From a virus (taxonomy: Duplodnaviria > Caudoviricetes): a stretch of DNA of 64,000 nucleotides. Below are positions 1 to 46,857 of the stretch, one piece after another. The number at the start of each line of letters is the position of its first letter. The stretch's first letter is position 1. The stretch spans positions 1 to 64,000 of the IMG/VR virus record IMGVR_UViG_3300001525_000506. One strand, given 5' to 3'. A model generated the notes under the pieces. It worked only from the letters and a program-made list of their open reading frames with translations. It was not told the origin of the DNA and did not search any database. Both the position numbers and the translations under genes were made by a program.

Positions 1-319
1 AGTCCGAGTACGCGCGCACACGTTCTTGTTCAGTACCTTGAATGAATATATAATATACACAAGTATATGACAAAGTAAGTTATGTTTGGAGTATATAAGT
101 GAAGTTCATAAGAACGTGAATGGTGTCGGCATAGGCGTTGTGGCTATATCGGATAGGCATAGGTGTCGGTATTGTGGCTGTAACTGGTGTCGAAATCATA
201 TCATATCGTACTGGTGTCGGTATCAGTATCAGGCTGCATCGGTATCAGAGCCGTGCTATGACTGTAATCGGTATCGGAACTGTACCGAAGAAAAAAGTTT
301 ATTTATTTTTGCAAAACTC

Positions 320-348
320 TTGACAATTGAAAACATATATGGTATATT
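320..348 (+). promoter_or_regulatory. sigma-A promoter (class I) with no downstream ORF
   Basis: TTGACA-17 bp-TATATT, preceded by TTTTGCAAAA. Confidence 0.8.
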
Positions 349-350
349 AT

Positions 351-490
351 AGATGTAACAAAGGGAAAGCAAAAAGCGTTACGTCTCAATGGGATAGAGT
401 AGTACATCGACACACACCCTTGGTAAGACCGACTACCGAAAGCAACACGTCGATAAAGCAGAGCGACTATGGAACAGTCGCTCTCTTTTT
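351..490 (+). ncRNA. candidate small RNA
   Basis: Between promoter 320-348 and terminator 460-490; no ORF; stems AGATGTAAC/GTTACGTCT and ATCGAC/GTCGAT. Confidence 0.45.
460..490 (+). terminator. intrinsic terminator
   Basis: AGAGCGACT-loop-AGTCGCTCT then T-run. Confidence 0.8.
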
Positions 491-632
491 ATTCTCGCAG
501 CCCTTAATCGATTTTAAGGAGGTGTTAGCATTAAACCTGATAAGTTATCGATTAAAGTCATAACCGTGCTTAAATTGCGTTTGGCGACGTCGATGGGAAA
601 ATAAAAAATCTAAAATATTTTCATAAAAGGTA

Positions 633-661
633 TTGACAAACGATATTATATTTGATATAAT
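633..661 (+). promoter_or_regulatory. class I promoter
   Basis: TTGACA-17-TATAAT. Confidence 0.9.
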
Positions 662-716
662 CTAATTGTAAAAAGGTTGAGAGAACATCAACCGAAACAA
701 AAGGAGATATGAAACT

Positions 717-1094
717 ATGAAAAAACTTACCGCAATTAAGAACTTGCTTACGGACGGACTTGCAGACCACGAAGTCGTAGATATCAACAACCGCTATCAA
801 GACGAAGTCAATGGCGATACCTACATTTATTCAATGGACGACTTTGACGAACTTATGAATGGGAAAACGCCGAGTGAAATCGCAAATATGGCGACCTATG
901 GCGACTACAATCCCTTCCGTATGTGGTTTTGGTTTAATGGTTACGGCAATATTGTAACGAGTGATTATCCTGAGGATTGCAATGGTTATGACATCGATGC
1001 TATTGCCGAATACGCAATCGACAACGACGAAGATTTTGACAATGACGAAATCCGAGAAATCCTCGACGACGAATACGAAGAGTATGAAGAATAA
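717..1094 (+). CDS. highly acidic early protein (DNA-mimic candidate)
   Basis: AAAGGAG RBS, own promoter and terminator; about 34 D/E vs 7 K/R by hand count; WFWFNGYGN motif. Confidence 0.85.
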   Translation: MKKLTAIKNLLTDGLADHEVVDINNRYQDEVNGDTYIYSMDDFDELMNGKTPSEIANMATYGDYNPFRMWFWFNGYGNIVTSDYPEDCNGYDIDAIAEYAIDNDEDFDNDEIREILDDEYEEYEE

Positions 1095-1099
1095 AAAAG

Positions 1100-1130
1100 G
1101 AGCGGAGCGGAAACGCCCCGCTTTTCTTTT
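1100..1130 (+). terminator. intrinsic terminator
   Basis: GCGGAGCG-GAAA-CGCCCCGC then T-run. Confidence 0.7.
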
Positions 1131-1201
1131 ATTATCGAGACCGTGCTATATATGATGCGGAAAACTTGTGAAACAATTTTGAAAAACATTCATAAAAGGT
1201 A

Positions 1202-1230
1202 TTGACAAGCGATGTTATATGTGGTATATT
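1202..1230 (+). promoter_or_regulatory. class I promoter
   Basis: TTGACA-17-TATATT. Confidence 0.85.
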
Positions 1231-1280
1231 ATATACGTAATCAAGAGGTAACAGCCTCGGAACAAAAGGAGTATGGCATT

Positions 1281-1676
1281 ATGAACAGACCGAAAACAAT
1301 TAGAGCAACAATCAAGAGCAGCAAAGGCTTTTACATTGGCGATATATGCTATGTGTTGAGCGATGACGTATATGACGGCGTATGGGGCAAAAACGGGCAA
1401 TATCAGGACGGCGAATACGTAACCGACGACGGTTACAAGTTCGCAATGGCATCGACGGCATATGGCGACGGTTGCTATGACGACGACAACGACAACGTTT
1501 ACAGTGTGGACGCAGGCGTAATCGGTATCGTACCGCTTGAACTCGTAGTGAATTGGGACAAGGCGCAATGGGGCGCAGTATTCGAAGGCGGCGGCGAGGC
1601 GACAATGGTTGCGAGAGACGGCGAATTTGAGTTTACACTACCGAACGGACGCAAGATTAAAATCGATACGAAATAA
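1281..1676 (+). CDS. hypothetical phage protein (YIGDxCY...TAYGDGxY...VDAGxIG family)
   Basis: Start moved to ATG 1281 after the AAAGGAG RBS. Confidence 0.8.
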   Translation: MNRPKTIRATIKSSKGFYIGDICYVLSDDVYDGVWGKNGQYQDGEYVTDDGYKFAMASTAYGDGCYDDDNDNVYSVDAGVIGIVPLELVVNWDKAQWGAVFEGGGEATMVARDGEFEFTLPNGRKIKIDTK

Positions 1677-1685
1677 GGGAAACGG

Positions 1686-1708
1686 CGGATGAAAACATCC
1701 GCTTTTCT
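1686..1708 (+). terminator. intrinsic terminator
   Basis: GCGGATG-AAAA-CATCCGC-TTTT. Confidence 0.85.
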
Positions 1709-1780
1709 TATATCCTCGATACCGTGCTATATGCAGCAACAGAATCGATATGATTTTTCTAAAAATATTTTGCAAAACTA

Positions 1781-1809
1781 TTGACAAATAAAATTATATA
1801 TGGTATATT
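1781..1809 (+). promoter_or_regulatory. class I promoter
   Basis: TTGACA-17-TATATT. Confidence 0.85.
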
Positions 1810-1860
1810 ATATATGTAATCAAGGGGAACATAACCCCCGAAACAAAAGGAGTAACTACT

Positions 1861-2112
1861 ATGAAAGTTTATGCAGTACAGACCATTGAAACAAACGACA
1901 CAATCCCGACAGTGAAAGTTGAAGTATTCTCAACAAAAGAAAAGGCGAAAGAGTATTTTGAAGAGCAAGTACAATGGTACAAAGACCAAAACGATATGGA
2001 GAATTATGGTGTAATCGAGGACGAAACGGACGACTTGTTTTCGTGGACGGCTGGAATCGGTTTTAACGATGACGCTTTGGAAATCACCATTAACGAATGC
2101 GAAGTGAAATAA
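1861..2112 (+). CDS. hypothetical acidic protein
   Basis: AAAGGAG RBS, promoter upstream. Confidence 0.85.
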   Translation: MKVYAVQTIETNDTIPTVKVEVFSTKEKAKEYFEEQVQWYKDQNDMENYGVIEDETDDLFSWTAGIGFNDDALEITINECEVK

Positions 2113-2128
2113 GGAGGAATTAGCAGCA

Positions 2129-2269
2129 ATGGGCAAAGGAGCAAAATACAAAGTCGTTTACAAGGCTTACGGGCATTGGACGGAACAGAAGTTTAGCGAC
2201 CTCGAACTCGCTTACGAATTGGCGGTGAGGACGAACGGAATTATACTGAATGCGAAAGCGACGGACTGA
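2129..2269 (+). CDS. small hypothetical protein, 46 aa (MGKGAKYKVVYK...)
   Basis: AGGAGG RBS; below the ORF-track length cutoff; ends within the terminator. Confidence 0.7.
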   Translation: MGKGAKYKVVYKAYGHWTEQKFSDLELAYELAVRTNGIILNAKATD

Positions 2270-2284
2270 CCGTCGCTTTTTTCT
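2256..2284 (+). terminator. intrinsic terminator
   Basis: AAAGCGACGG-ACTGA-CCGTCGCTTT-TTT. Confidence 0.85.
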
Positions 2285-2309
2285 TCTCTAAAAACCGTGC
2301 TATCCCTAC

Positions 2310-2338
2310 TTGCGCCACAGGACGAATTCTGATATAAT
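2310..2338 (+). promoter_or_regulatory. class II promoter (TTGCGC -35)
   Basis: CCCTAC-TTGCGC-17-TATAAT. Confidence 0.75.
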
Positions 2339-2368
2339 ACAAGTTAATAATATCAGAAAGAGGTACTT

Positions 2369-2776
2369 ATGAACGAACTCGACATCAACCGCAGCGCCGT
2401 GCTTATGAGAAGGCTGGGAGAAGTATTTGAAAACTATGACACAGAAATAAAAAGGGAACGAGGAGAATATCAGACGAAGATGGTCGCTTTGGCTATCTTT
2501 GAGTTTGGTGTGTTGGTACTTGCAGGACTTTTGCTATGGAACTCAATCGTCCCCATACTCGAATTGAATGCGGTAATGGCTATATCTTGTGTTGGGCTTG
2601 TTGTCACACTCGGAATGGTTGCAGCAATGGTGAGGTTTACAAGGCAGTATAAGAACTTCCAGCAAAGATGTGATATGATATTGTGCGAAATCATAGGCGA
2701 AATTTTTAAGGAGTATTACGATGACCTCTGGAACGCTCTCGGCACCGTGCATTATGACGATATCGGAAAGATGTAA
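2369..2776 (+). CDS. two-TM membrane protein
   Basis: Two hydrophobic segments; GAGG RBS. Confidence 0.8.
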   Translation: MNELDINRSAVLMRRLGEVFENYDTEIKRERGEYQTKMVALAIFEFGVLVLAGLLLWNSIVPILELNAVMAISCVGLVVTLGMVAAMVRFTRQYKNFQQRCDMILCEIIGEIFKEYYDDLWNALGTVHYDDIGKM

Positions 2777-2815
2777 ATTTTGTCAAAAATATTCTAATCA
2801 AATGCGTTAAAATCA

Positions 2816-2844
2816 TTGACAATTAAAATCGTATATGATACAAT
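2816..2844 (+). promoter_or_regulatory. class I promoter
   Basis: TTGACA-17-TACAAT. Confidence 0.8.
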
Positions 2845-2892
2845 TAAGACAATCGAAGGGGGACAGCCCCAATACTAAAGGAGTACAAAACC

Positions 2893-3426
2893 ATGAAGAA
2901 AGTTATCTTTGACGGAAACGACAGCAGAACAGTAGAGACCTTGAAATCGCTTATGGACAATGGTGAATTGAAGAAAGGCGTTTATACAAAGGTTGTGTTT
3001 AAGAGCATTAAAGAGGCTTACAAGAGTTATGAGAAAGAAAATGGCAAGACCATAATCGAGAAAGTGACCGAAGGCGTAGTAAGATTTGGTATCGACTACT
3101 ACAATACGGCGACTTACAAGAACAAGATTATTGACCCGAACAAAGAACCGAACCGCAATAGCAGCAGTCAATATGATAGCCTTGTTAGCGGATACGAGGA
3201 CTTGCTTGTGGAAACGAACCGCAATGGTGTTGTGAGCCACAAAGTCAAAATGTACGCAAGCAAGAGCGATAGCTTAAGGATGGTGAGCAAATGGTATCTC
3301 AATGGCGTTGAGGTTGACAAGAGCGCACTTGACGGAATTATGAAAGCCCAAAGTCAACCGAAGAACGAGGACGACTTTATCACCTTCCAAATCAAAGCGC
3401 AAAACCTTATCTCAATCGGCGGTTGA
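2893..3426 (+). CDS. hypothetical protein
   Basis: AAAGGAG RBS. Confidence 0.85.
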   Translation: MKKVIFDGNDSRTVETLKSLMDNGELKKGVYTKVVFKSIKEAYKSYEKENGKTIIEKVTEGVVRFGIDYYNTATYKNKIIDPNKEPNRNSSSQYDSLVSGYEDLLVETNRNGVVSHKVKMYASKSDSLRMVSKWYLNGVEVDKSALDGIMKAQSQPKNEDDFITFQIKAQNLISIGG

Positions 3427-3454
3427 GATAAAAAACTAAAGGAGATATGCAACT

Positions 3455-3808
3455 ATGAAAGACATCACAAAGAACGCATTGGAACAAGACGGATTCAAGA
3501 ACTATGACGTAACATATGGCGAAAGCAACTTGCTTGACCATATCCTTGCGCAGACCATTAAGGATTTGTACACATACTCGTATCGGCTCGTATGTGAACT
3601 CAGGCAGCCAAAGGTTAGCAAGCGCAAAGTGAAGTATTTGAGAGACGAACTCGACACCATTATGGCATACTTTGATTCACCTCTCTATGCCCTACACACA
3701 ACCACACCGAAGTCGGTATGGATTGATTGGGTGAACAAAGCCGTACACAAACCGAAGATAAACATTGAGGAAACAGTCAATCGAATGTTTGAACATCAGG
3801 CGATATGA
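3455..3808 (+). CDS. hypothetical protein
   Basis: AAAGGAG RBS; terminator at 3815-3846. Confidence 0.8.
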   Translation: MKDITKNALEQDGFKNYDVTYGESNLLDHILAQTIKDLYTYSYRLVCELRQPKVSKRKVKYLRDELDTIMAYFDSPLYALHTTTPKSVWIDWVNKAVHKPKINIEETVNRMFEHQAI

Positions 3809-3894
3809 AATCAGAGCGGTATCGGAAACGGTACCGCTTTTCTTTTGTACATATATAGCACGGTAGCATTTTTGAACTTTTTTCATAACCCTAC

Positions 3895-3923
3895 TTGCGC
3901 TACAGCATACGTTTTGGTATAAT
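3895..3923 (+). promoter_or_regulatory. class II promoter with no downstream ORF
   Basis: AACCCTAC-TTGCGC-17-TATAAT. Confidence 0.75.
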
Positions 3924-3928
3924 GCAAT

Positions 3929-3993
3929 CATCAATATAGAACATTTGCACATCTCCTGCAAAGCAAAGGGACGGCAGCGATGCCGTCTTTTTG
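3929..3993 (+). ncRNA. candidate ~65-nt sRNA with anti-SD loop
   Basis: Promoter, hairpin TTTGCA-CATCTCC-TGCAAA, terminator GACGGCA-GCGA-TGCCGTC-TTTTT; no ORF. Confidence 0.6.
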
Positions 3994-4078
3994 TTTACAC
4001 TCGGAGCCGTGCTTGCTATGATGCAGGCGGCGGTGGTAATTTGATAAAAAATTCTCTAAAAATATTTTGTTAAAACTA

Positions 4079-4107
4079 TTGACAAATCAAATCATATGGT
4101 ATATAAT
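4079..4107 (+). promoter_or_regulatory. class I promoter
   Basis: TTGACA-17-TATAAT. Confidence 0.9.
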
Positions 4108-4161
4108 CTAATTGTAAAAAGGTTGAAGACATCGACAACCGATACGAAAGGAGATATGATA

Positions 4162-4668
4162 ATGAAAAAGAACAAAAAAGTAACACTTTACAGCAACGCA
4201 GTCAGTATCGAACGCATAGAAGATGCAAGACAATATTTGCTCGACGAAAACGGCGAAGAGCCGACAGACAGTGAAGTTTGGGATTTAATTTCAAACGATA
4301 TAGATATAGATTGGGACGTTTTCAAAACCAACTATAAGAAATATTTTGACACACACAATTTTGTCGTCAGGGCAAGTATAGGACGTTGGAATGGACGTTT
4401 TAGCAGCGGTAAGATATGGACGAATGGTTGGGAAGATATCCTTAACCTTGCACATTATGAAATTTTTGAAATTTTTGATGACAACGGACACCTCAAAGTC
4501 GTTGGACATCACCATGATGGAACAGACTACTTTGAAATCAGGGAACTTACTCGAAAAGGCAACGAATACGCAATTGGCTCCCACAACGACAAGAGTGAAA
4601 CCGAAGACGCACAAGCCGTATGGAACAATTTTCATAGTCGCTTGCCGAGATTGGCGGAGATGATATGA
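4162..4668 (+). CDS. hypothetical phage protein
   Basis: Start moved to ATG 4162 after the AAGGAG RBS. Confidence 0.8.
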   Translation: MKKNKKVTLYSNAVSIERIEDARQYLLDENGEEPTDSEVWDLISNDIDIDWDVFKTNYKKYFDTHNFVVRASIGRWNGRFSSGKIWTNGWEDILNLAHYEIFEIFDDNGHLKVVGHHHDGTDYFEIRELTRKGNEYAIGSHNDKSETEDAQAVWNNFHSRLPRLAEMI

Positions 4669-4910
4669 TAAGAACAGTAAAAGAACAGAAACTCGATGAC
4701 GAAGGCGGATACGTCCGCCTCGAAGTCGATATCGAGAACCAACATTGCTTTGTAACGCGCCATACGACGAATACAGGAACGATAACGACAAAGGATTTGG
4801 GAACAGACCATCCTCGCTCCATTGCCTTATTCAGAACCTTGTGTGAAGTCAGAGACACACACGAAGATATCGAAGATGTTATATATGAATTTGAAACGGC
4901 GACGAAATAG
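4665..4910 (+). CDS. hypothetical protein
   Basis: ATGA overlap with the upstream gene; terminator follows. Confidence 0.75.
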   Translation: MIRTVKEQKLDDEGGYVRLEVDIENQHCFVTRHTTNTGTITTKDLGTDHPRSIALFRTLCEVRDTHEDIEDVIYEFETATK

Positions 4911-4994
4911 TCGTCGTTTTATTTTGGCGGCGGCACCGTGCTACCATAAGAGTTGCAGCTGGCTAAAAATTGTCAAAAATATTTTGCAAAAGTA

Positions 4995-5023
4995 TTGACA
5001 AATGATGTTATATATGGTATTAT
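4995..5023 (+). promoter_or_regulatory. class I promoter
   Basis: TTGACA-17-TATTAT. Confidence 0.85.
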
Positions 5024-5069
5024 ATATATGTAAAGAGGACAAGAGCCTCGACACCAAAGGAGATATGAA

Positions 5070-5540
5070 ATGGTACAAATCAAGATAACAGACGACCTTG
5101 ATGTCGTAGTCAGTGAACCCAACGATACGCCCGAAAGCAGTTTTAACTACCTTGTTAAACAAGGGCGCAACAGCTATGCAAAGACACTTAAACCGTTTGA
5201 CAACTATGGTTGTTTTATATGGATAAATGGTGTGTATTACGATTGCATTGATAAAGATGCATTCAGCGACGAAGATTTTGCAATCGACGTCATCGAGAAT
5301 ATAAAAAAATGCAAGACAATCGAAGACTTACTCGATTTTACGACTTCCCGCAATTATCACGTAAGCAAAAATCCGTACGATTTAATCGAGGACTATGAGA
5401 TGACGCCAAGCGTTTATACACAAGAAGAAATCGACGCTTTGAAAAAACTTCCCGAAGACGAACTCAAAAAAGAACTAAAAAAATACATATACGCATTCTT
5501 TATAGACTTTGGGGCGTATGTGGCATTTATATATGATTAA
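5070..5540 (+). CDS. hypothetical acidic protein
   Basis: AAAGGAG RBS. Confidence 0.85.
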   Translation: MVQIKITDDLDVVVSEPNDTPESSFNYLVKQGRNSYAKTLKPFDNYGCFIWINGVYYDCIDKDAFSDEDFAIDVIENIKKCKTIEDLLDFTTSRNYHVSKNPYDLIEDYEMTPSVYTQEEIDALKKLPEDELKKELKKYIYAFFIDFGAYVAFIYD

Positions 5541-5557
5541 ACTAAAGGAGACCAACT

Positions 5558-5857
5558 ATGGAAGTTAATGGTAAAGAAATGACAACAAAAGATTTTGCAA
5601 AAAATTATATCCCCACGCCCGAAGAATTTTCAATTCACAATACGATTAAAATTTATTTTGAACTCGAAGATATAAAATACGTCCTCTACGAATATTTTAG
5701 TTGCGCAACAATCGACGATTTGAGCGAAGAGGAACTCAATGCCATCTTCGACCGACAAGAAGACTACCTCGAAGAACACTCATACGAGAGCAATATATTG
5801 GCAGAGATTATCGAAGAAGTCCTCGACGAATACGGCAACACAACAATTCAGAGATAA
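5558..5857 (+). CDS. highly acidic small protein
   Basis: AAAGGAG RBS; about 25 D/E vs 7 K/R in 99 aa by hand count. Confidence 0.85.
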   Translation: MEVNGKEMTTKDFAKNYIPTPEEFSIHNTIKIYFELEDIKYVLYEYFSCATIDDLSEEELNAIFDRQEDYLEEHSYESNILAEIIEEVLDEYGNTTIQR

Positions 5858-5985
5858 AGCAAAAGGCGGCGGATATTCCGTCGCTTTTCTTTTACTACTA
5901 TAGCACGGTGGACAGGTGCTGTAATGTGCAGATTTTGCACTTTGCTTTTTGCATAAAATTTGCATAAAATATTTTCATAAAACTA

Positions 5986-6014
5986 TTGACAAATCAAATT
6001 ATATATGGTAATAT
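5986..6014 (+). promoter_or_regulatory. class I promoter with tandem TT(T)TGCATAAAA upstream
   Basis: TTGACA-17-TAATAT. Confidence 0.8.
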
Positions 6015-6062
6015 ATATACGTAATCAAGAGGGACACAATCCCGAAACAAAAGGAGTATGGT

Positions 6063-6386
6063 ATGCAATACAAAGATTGGAACATCGAGGCAATGACAGG
6101 CTACAAGCCTAAGACGACGTTTTATATGGACTTTTCCATCGCCGACAAGTTTGGTGCAGCCGCAATCAAAGACACTTATAACAGGGCTTTTGAGCATTGG
6201 AAGGACAACACCGAATACGTAACCGAATTGGCTATGGTGTTGAATTGGAAGGCTTGGGAACATAACGCAAGCGGTAATGACACCTATACTGAACTCTACA
6301 CAGACTTGTATTATGCCGTTGACGAATGGTGTATGAACAATCTCAAAGGCGACGATATAAAATACTATCTCAGGACAACTGATTAA
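6063..6386 (+). CDS. conserved hypothetical phage protein (TTFxMDFSIADKFG family)
   Basis: AAAGGAG RBS; family motif recognised from memory. Confidence 0.85.
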   Translation: MQYKDWNIEAMTGYKPKTTFYMDFSIADKFGAAAIKDTYNRAFEHWKDNTEYVTELAMVLNWKAWEHNASGNDTYTELYTDLYYAVDEWCMNNLKGDDIKYYLRTTD

Positions 6387-6396
6387 GGAGGCAGCC

Positions 6397-6549
6397 ATGA
6401 GCAATCTGATTGGAGTACGTTTTATCAACCGACCCGAATTCATCATCTACACAAAGCGAATATTTGAGGCAATGTGTTTAGACCCGACCGTACAAGACAT
6501 AATCGATGTCGAGACAGGGGAAGTCCTGTATGCGAAAGCGACCGAATAG
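6397..6549 (+). CDS. small hypothetical protein, 50 aa (MSNLIGVRF...)
   Basis: AAGGAGG RBS; ends within a terminator. Confidence 0.7.
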   Translation: MSNLIGVRFINRPEFIIYTKRIFEAMCLDPTVQDIIDVETGEVLYAKATE

Positions 6550-6656
6550 AAATCGGTTGCTTTTTCTTTTATCCGTATATAGCACGGTACGGTATCGGTA
6601 TCAATACCGTGCATCTAACCGCCTCAAATTGCTTGTGATTATTTTTCTAAACCCTC

Positions 6657-6686
6657 TTGACACAGCATATGCTATGGGTGTATAAT
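6657..6686 (+). promoter_or_regulatory. class II promoter
   Basis: AAACCCTC-TTGACA-18-TATAAT; 22 bp identical to the - strand promoter at 20934-20955. Confidence 0.8.
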
Positions 6687-6720
6687 GAGTATAATCTAAG
6701 AACATAAGGAGGATACTTCC

Positions 6721-7032
6721 ATGAGTAAGTATCAAGAAATTTTGAAACAAAAACCGACCGAAGAAGAACTTCACCTCTACTACCGCACCCGTCGTTATCT
6801 TATGCTTGACGCGATTGACGACGCGCTCAGAGACGCTGGATACGATAACGGTATCGCGGACATAAACGAAGAGGATATCGATGATATGCTCGACCACCTC
6901 GACTACAAAGTTAGGTCCGTCACCGAGGACGAACAGCTCGACATCTCGCGCCGTTACGAAGAGCGTCGCGTCCGCAACGAAGAGTGGCAAGCTTTCGTGA
7001 ACGATTTGCTCGCGGAACTGAGAGTGAGGTGA
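6721..7032 (+). CDS. hypothetical acidic protein
   Basis: AAGGAGG RBS. Confidence 0.85.
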   Translation: MSKYQEILKQKPTEEELHLYYRTRRYLMLDAIDDALRDAGYDNGIADINEEDIDDMLDHLDYKVRSVTEDEQLDISRRYEERRVRNEEWQAFVNDLLAELRVR

Positions 7033-7114
7033 AGGCATAAAGAAAATAAAACAAGCACGGGTATCCCCCGCGCTTATTTTATTCTCTTTGAGGTTAGCAC
7101 GGTGAGGGGTGTTA

Positions 7115-7159
7115 TGTATAATTATGCAATATCCGTGCCAAAAACTGTATAATTATACA
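7115..7159. promoter_or_regulatory. pair of 14-bp palindromes (operator-like)
   Basis: TGTATAATTATGCA (7115-7128) and TGTATAATTATACA (7146-7159). Confidence 0.5.
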
Positions 7160-7191
7160 ATCGGCGGCGGCACTTTTTTAATAATACCCCC

Positions 7192-7221
7192 TTGCGCCAC
7201 CACCTCCATATATGGTATAAT
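7192..7221 (+). promoter_or_regulatory. class II promoter
   Basis: CCCCC-TTGCGC-18-TATAAT. Confidence 0.7.
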
Positions 7222-7260
7222 TAAGGTACAAAAACACCAAAGGAGTGACTGTTTTTTCTT

Positions 7261-7728
7261 ATGATAAGCGTCTATGATATGGTTTATAACACCCTCAAAA
7301 TCTACCCCGATAAGTCGTCAGGCACTGCGCGTACTCTCTCCCGTATCGCGCTCAAAAACAAGGACCTCGCGAAACTCGTCGCGGAAGAAATCGCGGTCGG
7401 GCTCGATGATTTTGTTATCGGAGCCAACCGCAAATACGCGACCAATTTCATCGTCGATTCCGCGGTCGTTGACAGCGCCGCTCTCGAGTACGATTCGGAC
7501 ACCCGCGATACCCTCACCCTCCACGCGTTCGTCCACATCGCCATTCGCGATATCGTCCTCAACCCTGCAGCTGTGGCGATTGCTGTTACCAGCGGGCTTA
7601 TGCCTATACTCCCCAAACCAAACGCGTTCTCGTTCGTGAGGATGTTTACATTCAAGGTCCAGGTCGATAGAGAGCACGGTACTATATACGGCATATCCGC
7701 CGCCGAACAAGAGGAGCACGGTATATAG
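7261..7728 (+). CDS. hypothetical protein
   Basis: Promoter and AAAGGAG upstream; last + strand gene. Confidence 0.7.
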   Translation: MISVYDMVYNTLKIYPDKSSGTARTLSRIALKNKDLAKLVAEEIAVGLDDFVIGANRKYATNFIVDSAVVDSAALEYDSDTRDTLTLHAFVHIAIRDIVLNPAAVAIAVTSGLMPILPKPNAFSFVRMFTFKVQVDREHGTIYGISAAEQEEHGI

Positions 7729-7825
7729 AAAAACTCCCGTTTCACGGTAGTCTTTCTGTATGAGATTGAGCACGGTATTATATTGTACGCGCGCACGCAC
7801 ACGTGAGGCGAGCACGGTATGTTAA

Positions 7826-7860
7826 GAACAGCACCCTTTGTGGGTGCTGTTCTTCTTCTT
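7826..7860. terminator. terminator between convergent units
   Basis: AACAGCACCC-TTTGT-GGGTGCTGTT next to the portal stop codon. Confidence 0.8.
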
Positions 7861-9565
7861 ATTCTTCTTTTCGACCGAACATGTTGTCTATCATCCCCTG
7901 CGTATTCGCTCCGCCGCCGTCTGCATTCGAGTACGCATCCGTCCGAGCCTGACGCGATTTCTCAAGGAACGTTTTTTCGTCCTCTTTCTCTTTCCTCGAC
8001 AACGTGTCGCCGTAGAGTTTCTCGATGTACATATTCGTCGAAATCTCTTCCATATCGTACGCCTTACCCAAGACGTCCAATTTGTTCTCAAAGCTGTCGT
8101 CCGCAAATTCATTGAACTTCACGCTGATGTTGTAAGAGTTCTTCGTTATCTTTCCCGTATCCATGAACTCTTTCGCCATCGTCAGCTGCGTCAACAACTC
8201 TTTCAAGATTTCAGTCTCGCCGTCAATGAGTCCGTTACGTGTGAATATCGTGACCTTTTCTTTCTCTCTTTGGGCGGCGGCATTGTCTTTCTTCGCAACG
8301 TCGATACCCAAAGTCGCGGGGGACAAGATTCCGTTCAAGATTTGCAACAGTATCTGTATCGCGTGGTCGTCGTACTGAGCAAACTGCAGATTCGGCTGTG
8401 TGATTTGTATCGGCTGACCCGAACTTGTTCCGTCACCGTTTCGCTGACCCTCAACCATAACGTACTTACGGTCATAAGACGTCGGCTTTTTCGGCATACC
8501 GTTCTTGTCTCTTTCCAAGAACTCGGAATTGAAATACTCAATCGGCGTACTCAGTCTCACCGCATTCGATGCTTGCGACAGCGCCTGGTCCAAATCGTCG
8601 AACAAGTCAATCTTGCCCGTAAAGATGCTGCGCCCGTATCCGCCCTGCTGTGATGTTTGCCCCAGCAATATACACGGAACTGCGAACATCTTGTCCATCG
8701 GTCCTATCTCGATTCGCGGTGGTACGTCTTTGAGTTCGGGAACGGTACTCAACTCGACCTTCTTCAAACTCGTATCCGACCCGACCCCGTCACGAGGCAG
8801 TTCGAACAGTTCGCTCTCGATTACGAGCACTCTCTCGCCCTCTTTATATATTGTACCCGCGTACGCGCGCGCACGTGAGGGAGTTTCAGGCGTTGGTCTC
8901 TCGTCAGGGAGAGCAACGGGCTTATAAACTATCCTTCGGGTCTCTATCAACACGTACCTCTTCTTGTCCGTTGTGTAGTAGTCCTTGAAGATGCACCCGA
9001 TGATTTTCTTGTTCTTGTAAACGAAATCGACGTTCTCCGCTCTGTAATAGGCGGCGGTCGGAAAATCGCTCACGTCTTTGTCCCAGTTTATCTTCCAACA
9101 GCCCCAGCCTTCGACCAACGTCAGCGGTAACTGTTCGTCTTTGTACGCCGTTTTCAATCCGCTCTCGTCAACTATCTTCATCAAGCCTTCGGTTTCGGTA
9201 TCGTCTCCCGCTCCAACCATCGGGAACGGCATGATATTCACCAAAGTATCGACTATGTTTCGGGGCTGTCCACTGTGTGTTCGCTTTATCTGCGCCTCCG
9301 AACTCGATATCGCCCAGAAGTAGTTCTTCTTGTTCCTCATATAGAACGGCTCAAAATTGAAATCGATTACGTTCGCTCTCGTGTAGAAGTTCAACAACTC
9401 GTCTCCGTCGCCGTCATACCACACGTTGTACTCTCTCAACTTCATCTTCGTTACCGATTCGCTGTCGTTGATGAACGTCAACCTGTCCGAGTCGGGTGCG
9501 GTATCGTACTTGACGAGCCCTAACATCTTTAACACGCGATTGCGTATGAATTCGCGTAGTGTCAT
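7859..9565 (-). CDS. portal protein (SPP1 gp6/A118-like)
   Basis: 568 aa; LSPATLG and FTGKIDLFDDLD motifs; size and position near the putative TerS. Confidence 0.85.
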   Translation of the reverse strand: MTLREFIRNRVLKMLGLVKYDTAPDSDRLTFINDSESVTKMKLREYNVWYDGDGDELLNFYTRANVIDFNFEPFYMRNKKNYFWAISSSEAQIKRTHSGQPRNIVDTLVNIMPFPMVGAGDDTETEGLMKIVDESGLKTAYKDEQLPLTLVEGWGCWKINWDKDVSDFPTAAYYRAENVDFVYKNKKIIGCIFKDYYTTDKKRYVLIETRRIVYKPVALPDERPTPETPSRARAYAGTIYKEGERVLVIESELFELPRDGVGSDTSLKKVELSTVPELKDVPPRIEIGPMDKMFAVPCILLGQTSQQGGYGRSIFTGKIDLFDDLDQALSQASNAVRLSTPIEYFNSEFLERDKNGMPKKPTSYDRKYVMVEGQRNGDGTSSGQPIQITQPNLQFAQYDDHAIQILLQILNGILSPATLGIDVAKKDNAAAQREKEKVTIFTRNGLIDGETEILKELLTQLTMAKEFMDTGKITKNSYNISVKFNEFADDSFENKLDVLGKAYDMEEISTNMYIEKLYGDTLSRKEKEDEKTFLEKSRQARTDAYSNADGGGANTQGMIDNMFGRKEE

Positions 9566-10153
9566 TTATTCTGTCTCCTTCTTCCTGTTTCTGTTTTCAA
9601 CTATTCTTTTTTTCATATCAGAATATAGTTGACCTTTATAATCTTCGTCGGCGGCGGCACTTGCCTCGCCTTCATAAGGCGCACACAATAATGCTTTGTC
9701 ACCTGGGTCTTCTCCAAATTGCTCTCGATATACTTTCTGCAAGTGCTTTTCGTATTCTTTGAGTTTGAATGAAATAGTCAGTTGCAGCCCAATATTCCGC
9801 TTTGCCATCGAAAAAAAATCTTCATCAAGGTCGCTCCAATTCTTAATCCACATCAGTTGCGGTTCGCGCTCGCATTCGGAACAGAAATCGTCCCAGTCTG
9901 CATATCGATTGCGCACCGAAATATAGTCGGGCACTCTCAATATATATGGCTTACCTTGATATTTTGGGCGGTCATTTCTTGGTCTGTACATAAGCCAAAA
10001 CATATTCCTCGTCAGGTCTATATACTCTGTTGTGTTGGGATTATATGAACTGGTTAAGACAAGATTCCCGTCTGTTCGGACCACAACGCGCGCGTAAAAC
10101 TTGTCAACAGTTGAGGACGCCGCCATTTCCGCATTAAGAGCATCCAAAAGCAT
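9566..10153 (-). CDS. hypothetical protein
   Basis: AAGGAG RBS, own promoter (10186-10215), abuts the portal gene. Confidence 0.75.
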   Translation of the reverse strand: MLLDALNAEMAASSTVDKFYARVVVRTDGNLVLTSSYNPNTTEYIDLTRNMFWLMYRPRNDRPKYQGKPYILRVPDYISVRNRYADWDDFCSECEREPQLMWIKNWSDLDEDFFSMAKRNIGLQLTISFKLKEYEKHLQKVYREQFGEDPGDKALLCAPYEGEASAAADEDYKGQLYSDMKKRIVENRNRKKETE

Positions 10154-10608
10154 AGCAAAACGGGCTCCTTTTCATTGATGAGAACAGTATAACACAGAGG
10201 AGGTATTGGTGTCAATAGGGTAAGCGAAAACGGGCGAAAAAAAACTGGTGGTCAGACCAAGACCAGAGCGGCGGGAAACCGCGAAAGTATAGTAGTATTA
10301 AACCGAGAGTATAGCAGGATTAAACCAAAAACAGCGTCAAAATCGAGTCCAAATCGGAGGTGTAATGTACCATTTTTGGTGCATAAAAAGCGGTCGAAAG
10401 TTTTTGCAGAAAAAGTGTAAAAAGTCGGTAAATTTAGGAAGTTTTTACAGAAATTATGCAAAAACTTTTGGGTATAAAAAAGGCTCCAGTTGCAGATAAA
10501 AGACTAAAAAAGTTCAGTTATCGCCAGTGGAGCAATATTTCTATTATGGAAGTAAAAAGAGAGCGTTAGATGCGAGAAAACACAACGTTTACGTTATCTT
10601 TTCGACCC

Positions 10609-11097
10609 TCACTCTAAGTCGTTTTTAATAGTGATATTGATAGGTTTGTTACCGTCGTCGTCGATGAGTTTAGCGAAGTGAGTTTTTGCGATAGCGACAG
10701 CGGTAGCGTTACCAGCGCAGGAGAGTTTATCGATAACTTCGCGAGCTTTCATTTTGGAGATAGTACGCATACGCCAGAAAGCGTCGTGATAATTTTGCCC
10801 ATAGAGAGCTTTGCAGAAGATATCGAGTTGTTCGGGAGTAGTTTTAAGGATAATGGGGATATCTTCGAAGTCAGCCCAGCGAGCGACAATATTTTCGAAA
10901 GTATCCTGGTCAAACCAGAAGCCCTCGACCTTATGATTAGCGCGATTAGATTCGAGGAAGTCGTCGTAATAGATGACACGCCCGATAGAAGAGCCGTCGG
11001 GGGTATGAGTGGTGTCAGCGACGGAAACTTTCGGGAGCGTAGCGCGTTTAGGAGCGGGGGAGCCGCTGGATTGAGGGTTGTTTTTCTTTGATGCCAT
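10609..11097 (-). CDS. putative terminase small subunit
   Basis: 163 aa from MASKKNN; helical body ending in PINITIKNDLE; upstream of portal; promoter 11168-11196. Confidence 0.45.
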   Translation of the reverse strand: MASKKNNPQSSGSPAPKRATLPKVSVADTTHTPDGSSIGRVIYYDDFLESNRANHKVEGFWFDQDTFENIVARWADFEDIPIILKTTPEQLDIFCKALYGQNYHDAFWRMRTISKMKAREVIDKLSCAGNATAVAIAKTHFAKLIDDDGNKPINITIKNDLE

Positions 11098-11282
11098 ATA
11101 TGTGAACTCCGAACAATGGAAGGTTGTCAAACATAGAAAGGACGTCACTCACTCTATGTTCGAGGGTATAGTAGCACACACGAAGGATAAAGTCAAGAGG
11201 AAAATGAAAAAAATTTCCAAAGAAACAAAAATCCGAGAGAAAACCGCCGCGAACGACGGTTTTTTCTCGTTTTATTCCTTTG

Positions 11283-11789: not shown

Positions 11790-12188
11790 AGTGGAGTAAG
11801 TATAACACACCACACACACGTAGCGCAAGAGGTCAAGGAACGGAAATTTCGCAAATTTTGCGGAATTTTCTGTCCCGCCCCCGCACCTCAAAATGTTACG
11901 CATAAAGCGAACAAAGAACAAGGTCTAAAGCCTCTCTACGTTCGACTTCAAACCGAGCTCAAATGTTTCACAAAAAGTCTATGTTAAGAAAAGCGACAGC
12001 AAAAGAAGCAGAAGAACAAAAGAAAGAAAAAGGTACGTAGTACCTACAAAGAAAGAAAACAAGAAGAGTGTGAAACATACATCTTGACAAGTGAAAATAT
12101 ATTTACTACGTAAATATATAAAGAAAAATCGAGGCAACATTTTCCGCGTTCTTTTTGAGTATTAGCCTAAGGTATTCGTATATATTAT

Positions 12189-12404
12189 TTCGTATATATA
12201 TTAACATATATATACTCATAAATATACTCATACCATTAGGCGTAGGGTTAATTTTTTTTTGCTTTCCGTACGCAAGGAAGGAAAATCGCAAGAGAAAAAA
12301 ATGAAAAAAACCTCCTTCGCGCGCGGACCGATTACGAAAATGGACGATACGCCTCATGCTATGAGTATGGGTATAGAGTATATATATGTTAATATATATA
12401 CGAA
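12189..12404. repeat. 29-bp perfect AT-rich inverted repeat in a non-coding region (origin/pac candidate)
   Basis: TTCGTATATATATTAACATATATATACTC at 12189-12217 and its reverse complement at 12376-12404. Confidence 0.85.
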
Positions 12405-12809
12405 TATACACATACGATATAGCTGAGGCTAATACTCGAAATCAACTGGGAACATGTTGTTTTTGGGAACATATTTGACACGTCTTAAATTTCCCCCCTT
12501 AGGGGGAAATTCGGGACACGAAACGTATTTGAGAGAGAGGGAAGTTCTTCTTTTTGAGGCGATACTACGTATCGCCGTTTTTCTTCTATTGGGAGTATGA
12601 GTTCTTTCGGGATGGAAGGGGCTTTTCTTAAAAAAGAGGCGAAAAAAGGTAAACTTTTGAACTAATTTGGTCAAAAATCTACCTTTTTTTCTTATTTCTT
12701 TCTTTTAAGACCCACGAAGTGGGTCTATTTCTTTCTATTGTTCTTTTGTTTGGGTTTTTCTTTTACGCTTTTTCTTTTTTCGGGCTCAAAAACTGGCTCG
12801 ATTTGGAAG

Positions 12810-14976: not shown

Positions 14977-15255
14977 TTATTCTTCGTCGTCGAAATCGAT
15001 ATAAATGATGTTGAAGAAAGCGCCGTTGTAACTGGGCTCGACAAGAATTTTCCACACACGATTAATATCCTTGATAGAGTTGAGGTTCTTTTCGAGCGAG
15101 GCAGCATCGCAGCGAATGACGCGATATTGCGGCGGCTTTCGTTCGATACCGATAGTTACAGCGCGGTCTTCATCCGCATCGTCCACAGTTTCTTCAGCGA
15201 CTTCGTCCACGACCTTTTCTTCTTCGTTTTCTAAAATTTTCTTTTTGTAAGGCAT
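14977..15255 (-). CDS. hypothetical acidic protein
   Basis: AGGAG RBS. Confidence 0.75.
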   Translation of the reverse strand: MPYKKKILENEEEKVVDEVAEETVDDADEDRAVTIGIERKPPQYRVIRCDAASLEKNLNSIKDINRVWKILVEPSYNGAFFNIIYIDFDDEE

Positions 15256-15279
15256 AATTTTATAATCTCCTTCTTGTTT

Positions 15280-15468
15280 TTATTTATTCTTTTCGGCGCA
15301 AGTTGCGACGCGTTTTATATATGCGGATAAATCGCGGTTTTCTTCGAGCCTGCGTTGTTTTATGACTTCGCGTTTGGCTTTGAATTCGGCATAGCCCGAA
15401 CACGAATCGTGACAGGCTAAATGCCGAATGGTACAATCTTTGCAAGGACAAGTGCAATCCAGTTTCAT
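15280..15468 (-). CDS. Cys-rich small protein, paralogue of 26716-26907
   Basis: CPCxxCxxRxxxCHxxCxxYAEFKxKRE in both; promoter 15492-15521. Confidence 0.8.
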   Translation of the reverse strand: MKLDCTCPCKDCTIRHLACHDSCSGYAEFKAKREVIKQRRLEENRDLSAYIKRVATCAEKNK

Positions 15469-28903: not shown

Positions 28904-30442
28904 TCAATGGGTTTTGAAAGTTTTCCATCTTCGCAGCGACGGCAATAACGGCGCCTTTGCATATTCAACACACGTCAATACGTGGTCGTTGCCGTCTTCA
29001 CGAGCCTCACCTTTTTTGCCACGACGTGCGTTCTTAATCTCTCGAACGAGGTTTTTGCACTTATCGGACACAAGGAAGTCGCCGTAAGCCATCAAAAGTC
29101 TATCGAAGTCAACACGAGTTTGAATTGAGAGTTTCGTTGATGCCATAAAACGAAGATTATACAGCCCATATTCGTGTGCTTTCATTTCCAAAACTTGTCT
29201 GAAACCGACGTCGGCGCTGTCAACATAAACGTTTATAGTTCCTCGCATAAGAATTGTTCCGAGATTGCCATAATATTCCGTCCATTTAATGATTTCGTTG
29301 ATAAGCCTATCCGCTTGTTCGGGCAAGCCTATGCTCTCGCGGTCGTCCGTATTCATATAGTTATCGGCTTTATTATTGCTGTGGAAATACTCGTCTATTG
29401 TCGCAATTTTCTGCAAATCAGCCGTAACCGCACACAAAGACATAGTCGTCGCCGCACGCACCTTCAAATCCGCATTTTCGTTTTTACCGACTTTGAGGAC
29501 GTGACCGCCACCGTCAGAGAGACCAGTATCGATACCGATTGAGAAGTCAGCCCATTGCGTACGCGTACCCGTAAGCCCCAATAGCGTCGGCAACGGTACT
29601 ATCAGCGAATCGTTCCATTCGGGATAAACTGCAGCCGTCGTGTTACCGAACATCCCCAAGAACTCAACTTTATATATTTCGGGCGCCTTTCTCTTCATTT
29701 CGAGTGCTGCCGCATCATAAGAGTCCTTATCGCGGAATTCGTTGATTTTATATGTGGATTTGTGCAAATATAAGCCTTTGCCGTAAGGACCTATGAATTC
29801 GGGGTCATAATAGTCCACATACGTCACGTCATCGCGGTCGAGCGTCGCATAATCGTCGTCGAGCCTATTCTTGAAGAATTCTTGATTGAGCCACGAATCG
29901 CCGTCCCAAGCGTTGAAACACATCGTAATTTGAAAATTTAACGGATACGGCAATTTACCACGCAATGAACCGTCGATTTTACGAAAGTCCTCAAACGACG
30001 GAACTTCAAACGCCTCGTCGATATATGCGTCTGTAAAATAACCGTTTGCAAATGTGATACCGTTTAGAGATGTCGGGTTGTTCAAACCACGGAAAATAAT
30101 TTGTTGTCTGGTCGGCTTATATTCGATTACGAGCGGATTCTTTGAGATTTTGAACGCATCTTCGAGACCTAAATCGACAATACAACCACACACGTTCTCG
30201 AACGTTGATTGTCTGTTATCGCTGTCGTTTTGACGGGCGATAAGGACGTTTCGCCTCGAATCCGATATTATCTTCATAATCGGCTCGTATCCGATTATAT
30301 TCTTCGATTTCTTTGTGGAACGCGCACCGCAAAAGAGACGGTAACGGCAGTGGTTATTCATAAACCACGCTTTTGTGTAACCGCCTCCAATGAGTTTTTT
30401 AAGGGACATTTCCCCATTTGGCAAAAAGATATCGTCTCTCAC
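28904..30442 (-). CDS. terL: terminase large subunit (PBSX family)
   Basis: Walker A GARSTKKS, IIFRGL, Walker B YIDEAF, nuclease GIDTG, VDSAD, DGNDHVLT. Confidence 0.92.
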   Translation of the reverse strand: MRDDIFLPNGEMSLKKLIGGGYTKAWFMNNHCRYRLFCGARSTKKSKNIIGYEPIMKIISDSRRNVLIARQNDSDNRQSTFENVCGCIVDLGLEDAFKISKNPLVIEYKPTRQQIIFRGLNNPTSLNGITFANGYFTDAYIDEAFEVPSFEDFRKIDGSLRGKLPYPLNFQITMCFNAWDGDSWLNQEFFKNRLDDDYATLDRDDVTYVDYYDPEFIGPYGKGLYLHKSTYKINEFRDKDSYDAAALEMKRKAPEIYKVEFLGMFGNTTAAVYPEWNDSLIVPLPTLLGLTGTRTQWADFSIGIDTGLSDGGGHVLKVGKNENADLKVRAATTMSLCAVTADLQKIATIDEYFHSNNKADNYMNTDDRESIGLPEQADRLINEIIKWTEYYGNLGTILMRGTINVYVDSADVGFRQVLEMKAHEYGLYNLRFMASTKLSIQTRVDFDRLLMAYGDFLVSDKCKNLVREIKNARRGKKGEAREDGNDHVLTCVEYAKAPLLPSLRRWKTFKTH

Positions 30443-46440: not shown

Positions 46441-46857
46441 TTAGAGTTTAACTACGGTCATATCCGCATTCGAAACCGTAATCGCCACACCGCTGTTCAA
46501 GAGCGTAAGCGTATCAATAATGTTTTGACTATTGTACGTTCTTACGATTGCCGCGAATGACAAGCTGCGGACTTCGGTCGTTGCCGTCGTTATGGTCGTG
46601 CTTGCAGTTCCACCTACAACTGCCGTGCCGTTTTGTTGGAGTGCGATTGTAACCGTACCCGCAGCAGGAGCCGTGAACGTAACCGTCACATTTACGAGAT
46701 AGAAGTTGGAACCGCAGTCGCTTATTGCTACTCCAGTACCTGATTGCACTATCTCTCCACCGCGTCTACGCACAGTATTTGAAAACGGGATTACAGCATT
46801 TGCCAAGACGGAAGTTGAAGTCGTTGTTGCAACATCAATCAATGATTTACAAGACAT
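46441..46857 (-). CDS. BclA C-terminal (C1q/TNF-like) domain protein
   Basis: IPF...YLVNVTVTF...LQQNG...MTVVKL beta-sandwich pattern. Confidence 0.65.
   Translation of the reverse strand: MSCKSLIDVATTTSTSVLANAVIPFSNTVRRRGGEIVQSGTGVAISDCGSNFYLVNVTVTFTAPAAGTVTIALQQNGTAVVGGTASTTITTATTEVRSLSFAAIVRTYNSQNIIDTLTLLNSGVAITVSNADMTVVKL

Follow-up and report, generated by a model that had tools for sequence, protein, structure and literature searches.

A polar CCGTGC array held in two opposed blocks by a clade of uncultured gut and rumen phages, and its possible reading as a Chi-type signal

Chi sites are short, non-palindromic words (5–8 nt) that are used in one orientation. Phages LLS and MD8 have oriented arrays of Chi clustered at their DNA ends (PMC12315714), and phage P1 has a Chi-dense zone where its headful ends fall (bioRxiv 10.1101/2021.07.08.451572). 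In these phages tens of copies of one polar word lie near DNA ends and are oriented toward the end at which nucleases enter, and the proposed roles of the arrays are protection of the DNA and promotion of circularisation or of growth that depends on recombination. Here we describe an array of the hexamer CCGTGC in the early region of a tailed phage known from a 75,551-bp IMG/VR record (IMGVR_UViG_3300001525_000506), of which bases 1–64,000 form the window analysed; higher coordinates refer to the remainder of the record. It too consists of tens of copies of one polar word, with an invariant core and strand-polar blocks. The difference is that the LLS, MD8 and P1 arrays run one way and have a known enzyme and host, whereas the array here has two opposed blocks, is tied to terminators, and uses a word that is nearly absent elsewhere in the genome.

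Staphylococcus phage K (KF766114, L244) provides a second comparison. It has 40 copies of GAAGCGG, the Chi heptamer of S. aureus, and every one falls within the two terminal repeats of 8,486 bp (1–8486 and 139832–148317), 20 in each, leaving none in the 131-kb unique part; we found no statement of this confinement in the searchable literature. Within the repeat, + strand early cassettes converge on − strand genes, and the Chi copies occur both in open reading frames (ORFs) and at junctions. The likeness to the present locus is considerable, since in both a short asymmetric word is confined to an 8–10-kb + strand early host-takeover block that converges on − strand genes, with copies in ORFs and at cassette junctions and some arranged as inverted pairs. 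The pattern in phage K means that near-absence of a word outside one zone is compatible with its being a true Chi. However, the phage K word is an experimentally supported Chi and its repeat boundaries are annotated, and the two orientations in phage K are interspersed (13 and 7 per repeat), whereas here they form blocks.

The third comparison is with the host-takeover modules of SPO1 and Twort-like phages, which are rows of small genes of unknown function, with strong host-type promoters, strong ribosome-binding sites and terminators. The early region here is built in the same way. Promoter–gene(s)–terminator cassettes on the + strand occupy positions 300–7820, and the array continues upstream at 73.2–75.1 kb of the record. 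Each cassette comprises one or two small genes of unknown function behind a sigma-70-type promoter of their own and an AAAGGAG ribosome-binding site, and is closed by a hairpin terminator. There are two promoter classes, a TTGACA-17-TATAAT type and a TTGCGC class, and the promoter blocks (50–160 bp) are mutually 72–87% identical by self-BLAST. The early proteins near the array have no matches. A first-pass annotation of this DNA had described the repeated promoter block and the AAAGGAG site, and had likened the region to that of SPO1; the former are borne out, and the latter is apt. The SPO1 and Twort-like modules differ in that they lie in a direct terminal repeat, whereas for the array here a location in a repeat is a conjecture, and no polar word is described for them in the searchable papers.

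CCGTGC occurs 20 times at 251–7817, 22 times in the whole window and 27 times in the entire record. The total in the window is unremarkable (22, compared to 18.8 ± 3.9 in dinucleotide shuffles). Five additional copies, all +, lie at 73164–75078, immediately ahead of the contig start, so that 25 of the 27 copies fall within a single early zone of about 10 kb (73164–75078 plus 251–7817; 10.75 kb), and the remaining two are at 46623 and 51749. In the early zone the 25 copies compare with 2.4–3.2 expected from Markov models of orders 1–3, and at orders 2 and 3 no other hexamer ranks above it. The remaining 64.8 kb have 2 copies, against 17–19 expected. The depletion outside the zone is owed partly to a general rarity of CGTGC and CCGTG, although the one-letter neighbours of CCGTGC are found there at 0.4–0.6 of expectation and CCGTGC itself at 0.1. 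The first-pass annotation had counted 19 copies in the early region, one too few, and had called the copies elsewhere sporadic; the genome-wide count with orientation upholds the enrichment over a Markov background, the scarcity elsewhere and the polarity. A literature search for the word found nothing relevant.

The copies are arranged by orientation in this genome, with 9 of 10 on the + strand up to 4941 and 8 of 10 on the − strand from 5903 (permutation p = 0.0024). The two-block split and the reverse tally had been noted previously; the forward tally had been given as eight of nine. The forward block starts with a + copy at 251–256, upstream of the first early promoter of the window (−35 at 320), and another at 564–569, which has a terminator (459–494) on one side and a promoter (633) on the other. 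Three + copies of ACCGTGCTA come next: at 1141–1146, 10 nt past the T-tract of terminator 1101–1131; at 1722–1727, following terminator 1684–1712; and at 2295–2300, following terminator 2254–2289, and 10 nt ahead of a TTGCGC-class −35. The + copies at 2397–2402 and 2745–2750 lie within the ORF at 2369–2776, and their flanks depart from the consensus. The sole reverse copy of this block is the ACCGTGCTA at 3858–3863, which follows terminator 3815–3847. It is succeeded by a + CCGTGC at 4007–4012, after terminator 3969–3997, and the block ends with a + ACCGTGCTA at 4936–4941, after terminator 4895–4927.

The reverse or mixed part begins with a − copy of ACCGTGCTA at 5903–5908, after terminator 5866–5893. 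It continues with an inverted pair, GCACGG-N19-CCGTGC, at 6582–6612 (6582 reverse, 6607 forward; following terminator 6535–6572), a − copy at 7055–7060 that belongs to the stem of terminator 7053–7075, and a second inverted pair, GCACGG-N30-CCGTGC, at 7097–7138 (7097 reverse, 7133 forward), which precedes a TTGCGC promoter at 7192. Four − copies (7674, 7716, 7770 and 7812) are packed at 7674–7817, where the array converges with the portal operon, as had been reported in the first reading; those at 7674 and 7716 are within ORFs. A hairpin terminator at 7824–7854 is common to the early array and the converging operon, and the portal gene itself (7859–9565, −) has no copy of the word in this genome.

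The majority of the copies lie 6–11 nt past a terminator T-tract, whichever their orientation. In the near relatives, the gap between T-tract and motif is mostly 6–11 nt, while the distance from the motif to the next −35 is broad (39–127 nt). The tight gap on one side and the broad gap on the other indicate that the motif is anchored to the end of a cassette and not to the next promoter. The placement between terminator and promoter described at the outset thus holds for most copies, but the word is not an element of junctions only, since some copies are inside ORFs, including the portal ORF of relatives. When 151 distinct sites, drawn from six genomes, are aligned, the consensus is A-CCGTGC-T-A with an invariant core, and there is no second element at a constant distance from it. 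A role as promoter for a phage sigma-like factor was rejected for this reason, and because the middle and late regions lack the word.

The array is conserved. Each of five near relatives (portal 70–86% identical) has 23–32 copies in a 10–15-kb early array and 1–3 elsewhere, with unchanged polarity; 2–4 tandem copies are retained at the portal convergence, although their spacers differ. A profile search then reached 79 portal-anchored loci. An array with the identical word is present in all sampled members of one well-supported clade of the portal tree, with portal identities down to about 36%; its members have 16–33 copies in 7–16 kb, compared to 0–3 elsewhere in 63–80 kb, and in the complete relatives G007, G010 and G011 all copies are inside one stretch of 9–13 kb. 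The sister clade lacks the array, and there the large terminase lies directly upstream of the portal, adjoining it. It is concluded that this is a clade of uncultured gut and rumen phages that keep the motif in two opposed blocks over the early zone, with very few copies elsewhere.

The polarity relative to the portal is identical in all seven representatives tested (p from <5e-5 to 0.014 in the six others). One block lies beside or inside the portal gene and is followed by a mixed zone, whose junctions carry both orientations, and then by the opposite block. The density of copies peaks at the portal end, at about 1 per 200 bp. Close inverted pairs (<100 bp) invariably have the form GCACGG..CCGTGC, with 29 of these and none of the opposite form. 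In the distant subclades, 32% of 315 sites are 5–12 nt past a T-tract, compared to 5% of random positions, and 2–7 copies lie inside the portal ORF, on the sense strand only and in all three frames. Some of these fall at residues which the present genome encodes by other codons. The use of all frames, with altered codons, implies that selection acts on the DNA word itself. Across the clade, the motif is about 6-fold rarer outside the array than a reversed control.

A DNA search with the early region gave no match among isolated phages, and the nearest isolates by portal protein are phages of Anaerostipes, Clostridium and Solobacterium, at 27–31% identity. A scan of IMG/VR for three close copies gave no such array in unrelated phages, the hits being mostly tandem coding repeats and high-GC contigs. 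One unrelated 38.6-kb viral contig (L108) has nine copies of TACCGTGCT within 845 bp (1208–2053), in both orientations and iteron-like in appearance.

These results bear on an ordinary operator, at which a regulator would turn the early promoters on or off, the pattern of orientations being a historical accident. Most early promoters have a single site in the intergenic spacer ahead of them, and the phage encodes helix-turn-helix (HTH) and sigma-like proteins, which would suit such a role. However, the operator reading sits badly with the broad distance to the −35 and the tight distance to the previous terminator, with the copies inside the portal ORF and beside a non-coding module (U2, below), and with the conservation of block polarity over a deep clade. 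We regard it as very improbable. The activator site proposed in the first-pass annotation meets the same difficulty, since the motif is anchored to terminators rather than promoters, and nothing was found in support of its suggestion that the word is a defence-system decoy.

As a signal the motif is real, under selection and polar, and it requires some protein as its reader. An invariant asymmetric word, confined to one zone, with a polarity that depends on position, with copies in coding sequence and with a density that peaks at one border, implies a reader that senses direction, either by moving along the DNA or by entering from an end. In our assessment Chi is the best-documented class with such a reader. 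We therefore favour, tentatively and at slightly less than an even chance, the interpretation that the array is a Chi-type polar signal for a host AddAB/RecBCD-like enzyme, placed in a terminal or end-prone early zone. The same annotation had listed a recombination factor among the possible binding partners of the word, and this suggestion survives only if recast in such terms.

We infer a reader enzyme, an active strand and a location of DNA ends as follows. A host helicase-nuclease of the AddAB/RecBCD class, having entered at a double-strand end, would recognise (T)AGCACGG(T), whose complement is ACCGTGCT, in single-stranded DNA, and the early-gene zone would be where the phage chromosome has such ends or borders on them. 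Three sources of ends are conceivable: a long terminal repeat of the phage K or SPO1 kind; the end zone of serial headful packaging, which has been proposed for P1; and rolling-circle tails started at two flanking palindromes, U1 and U2. Each block would face the side from which the enzyme arrives, so that an enzyme from either side would meet many correctly oriented copies, stop degrading and load RecA. The early genes would thereby be protected and circularisation or recombination-dependent replication aided, with recombination concentrated at cassette borders as a by-product. In a terminal repeat, AGCACGGT would be the active strand and would point outward, whereas ends within the mixed zone would imply ACCGTGCT instead.

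The palindromes are origin-like modules. U1 is at 11955–12459 and its twin U2 at 75114–75551 of the record, on the far side of the array. In relatives U2 occupies a slot of the array, with two forward copies directly flanking it, and a U1-like palindrome lies 3–4.3 kb upstream of the portal stop in several subclades. The polarity does not flip at U2, and it switches 0.6–2.6 kb off the midpoint between U1 and U2. For these two reasons, a simple tie of polarity to bidirectional firing of replication was dropped.

The genomes assemble as circles with end overlaps of 99–127 bp (relatives flagged as having terminal repeats), and circular assembly fits a collapsed terminal redundancy. At positions 1–46 of the contig of relative L018 (G005), the remnant of a Nextera adapter runs directly into phage sequence; the join is about 130 nt to the left of the first copy of the word and falls within a conserved G-rich/C-rich inverted repeat. 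It may hint at a physical DNA end. In the present genome, GTACGCGCGCAC..ACACGT is repeated at 8–24, near the contig start, and at 7785–7805, between the last two copies of the motif. As a mark of a repeat boundary this was rejected, as it is not found in relatives and may be due to chance.

The promoters, the Shine-Dalgarno sites and the nearest isolates together point to a host in the Bacillota. The only bacterial bin with a related contig is labelled Bacteroidaceae, which is probably not the host because the label clashes with the Shine-Dalgarno sites and sigma-70-type promoters of the phage; we judge it a binning artefact.

Several observations weigh against a Chi function. Over-representation and replication-strand skew in the host chromosome are defining for Chi; in that bin, unlikely host as it is, AGCACGGT is not enriched, with 16 occurrences in 400 kb compared to 13.9 expected. 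Chi function predicts neither the placement 6–11 nt past terminator T-tracts nor the fixed form of the inverted pairs, and an invariant word demands that all hosts of an old clade share one Chi. The phage has recombination genes of its own (PDDEXK/DUF669), while the published Chi-rich lambdoid phages have no recombination module. The interspersed orientations of phage K are a further point on this side, as is T5, which has no such array and only two Chi sites per terminal repeat.

If the array is nevertheless correctly read as Chi, it reveals which word serves as Chi in a group of uncultured Bacillota of gut and rumen, and a word prediction of this kind is testable and could help to match phages to hosts. 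Taken with phage K, it would show that lytic Gram-positive phages regularly place many copies of host Chi in the early region, at their DNA ends or close to them. Such a defence against nucleases that degrade from ends is hardly described except in lambdoid phages and P1. In its two-block geometry, its coupling to terminators and the constant form of its inverted pairs, the array goes beyond any described Chi array.

A polar barrier explains two features that Chi does not predict, namely the terminator spacing and the form of the inverted pairs, and also the avoidance of the word elsewhere. Here a clade-specific DNA-binding protein would bind ACCGTGCT as a monomer and, in the manner of Ter sites or stoperators, halt RNA polymerase and/or the replisome when they approach from one side but not from the other. 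The opposed blocks would serve as a trap or insulator that keeps the rightward early module apart from the leftward late genes. A protein bound 6–11 nt beyond a terminator is shielded from transcription, and this position is kept in near and distant clades for either orientation. The 29 to 0 preference for GCACGG..CCGTGC is expected if each barrier faces outward, the copies in the portal ORF are all on the sense strand and could permit portal transcription, and the 6-fold rarity outside the array and the position of the array between two origin-like palindromes also suit a barrier.

Two small genes just upstream of the portal (9566–11148, −) provide a candidate reader and its neighbour; both are confined to array-bearing phages. 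The gene at 10609–11100 (−) encodes a helical, HTH-like protein with an invariant GN.TA motif; the one at 9566–10153 (−) has no fold match. Neither protein has a hit in Pfam, PHROGs or NCBIfam, and PDB sequence and fold searches gave weak matches at best (for the HTH-like protein, Z at most 5.2 and Foldseek E above 1). The array arose once, so that its co-occurrence with the genes is a single evolutionary event, which is a lead and not independent evidence. Moreover, the family of the proposed reader has diverged to 20–35% identity while the word has not changed, and polarity is the same on both sides of U2.

The described barriers differ from this array in other respects. Stoperators of Cluster A mycobacteriophages are likewise asymmetric, one-directional protein-binding sites in intergenic spaces, but their orientation follows transcription, whereas here it flips within an array of co-directional genes. 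The Tus–Ter and RTP–Ter fork traps also consist of asymmetric sites in two opposed groups, a geometry found here too, but those sites are 20–30 bp long and not known in phages, and the candidate reader here has HTH-like fold matches that are weak. We know of no phage fork trap, which counts against a barrier. On balance we consider a phage-encoded barrier unlikely, although it is the alternative to Chi that we take most seriously. If true, it would be a new kind of polar DNA barrier, and the first fork-and-transcription trap in a virus, separating a hyperactive early module from an oppositely transcribed late genome.

The same HTH-like protein could instead be the small terminase subunit, with the word as its recognition site. 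In this case the sites would flank the zone where packaging cuts are made, one block being cosB-like (initiation) and the other cosQ-like (termination). By eye the product of 10609–11100 resembles a small terminase, and its predicted layout (disordered head, HTH-like helices, long helix, conserved strand and acidic tail) is one that we take to fit small terminases. The gene is close to the portal, and in the basal member L079 it lies between large terminase and portal. The large terminase is PBSX/Terminase_3-like, a type linked with headful packaging, and avoidance of the word elsewhere would prevent stray cutting. However, no small-terminase profile or fold match above noise was obtained for the candidate, and the usual slot, directly ahead of the large terminase, is occupied by a different small gene. 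A few hundred bases suffice for the known pac and cos sites, where the array spans 7–16 kb, and a site after every early terminator has no packaging rationale. A terminase-related signal is improbable. In the array-bearing phages the portal gene is 8–19 kb from the large terminase, and the early array separates the portal from the other head genes; in this window the separated pair is 7859–9565 (portal) and 28904–30442.

We finally consider the cassettes themselves. The first-pass annotation had proposed that the early region is built of interchangeable cassettes, and that the repeats let them be swapped. The first proposal is confirmed, in that cassette families hold different positions in the six genomes, and their order and combinations vary. 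The motif is conserved among relatives, and every clade member sampled has the same word and polarity. The second proposal is not supported for the word. The orientation of the motif beside cassette families F04, F03 and F10 depends on position in the array and not on the cassette; a single family may have two forward flanks, two reverse flanks or mixed flanks in three different genomes, although the direction of its genes is constant. The spacers around the motif are not conserved. As orientation is not tied to cassettes, the motif is not a cassette recombination site, and exchange fits the 50–160-bp promoter and terminator homologies better.

An exchange site proper, at which a site-specific recombinase or nuclease acts on the word to move cassettes, would agree with the reshuffling and with the presence of the word at nearly every junction, including both flanks of U2. 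In the mixed zone the cassettes are bracketed by inward-facing copies that resemble terminal inverted repeats. However, the changing flanks of one and the same cassette argue against it, no recombinase or transposase was detected in the proteins scanned, and the portal-ORF copies are not at junctions. We rate this as the least probable of the readings weighed here. In integron-like systems the orientation of the site is fixed relative to the cassette and there is a recombinase; here the orientation varies, and the proteins scanned include no recombinase. The PeSL cassettes of T4-type phages are more alike, as repeated early promoter blocks flank swappable genes whose content and order vary among relatives, but exchange there is via the repeated promoter and stem-loop, whereas the word in this array, at 8–9 nt, is too short for that and is oriented independently of the cassette.

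Some further observations were made. The record broadly avoids palindromic restriction sites: GATC is missing from all 75.5 kb, and in the 64.8 kb outside the early zone TTTAAA, GTCGAC and AGTACT are missing and GTATAC, ATGCAT and GTTAAC are strongly depleted. The early genes at 717–1094 and at 73318–73710 of the record are paralogous, with 67% DNA identity over 557 bp, and their family marks the polarity switch in four relatives. A long reverse ORF inside the early zone (record 73746–74879, −) has one copy of the motif within it and no family match, and is a putative gene. In the relatives L015 (G001, at about 15000–15380), G004 and G005, the last cassette before the portal consists of a TTTACA-class promoter and about 300 nt of C-rich sequence that has no ORF and ends in a terminator, which may encode a non-coding RNA.

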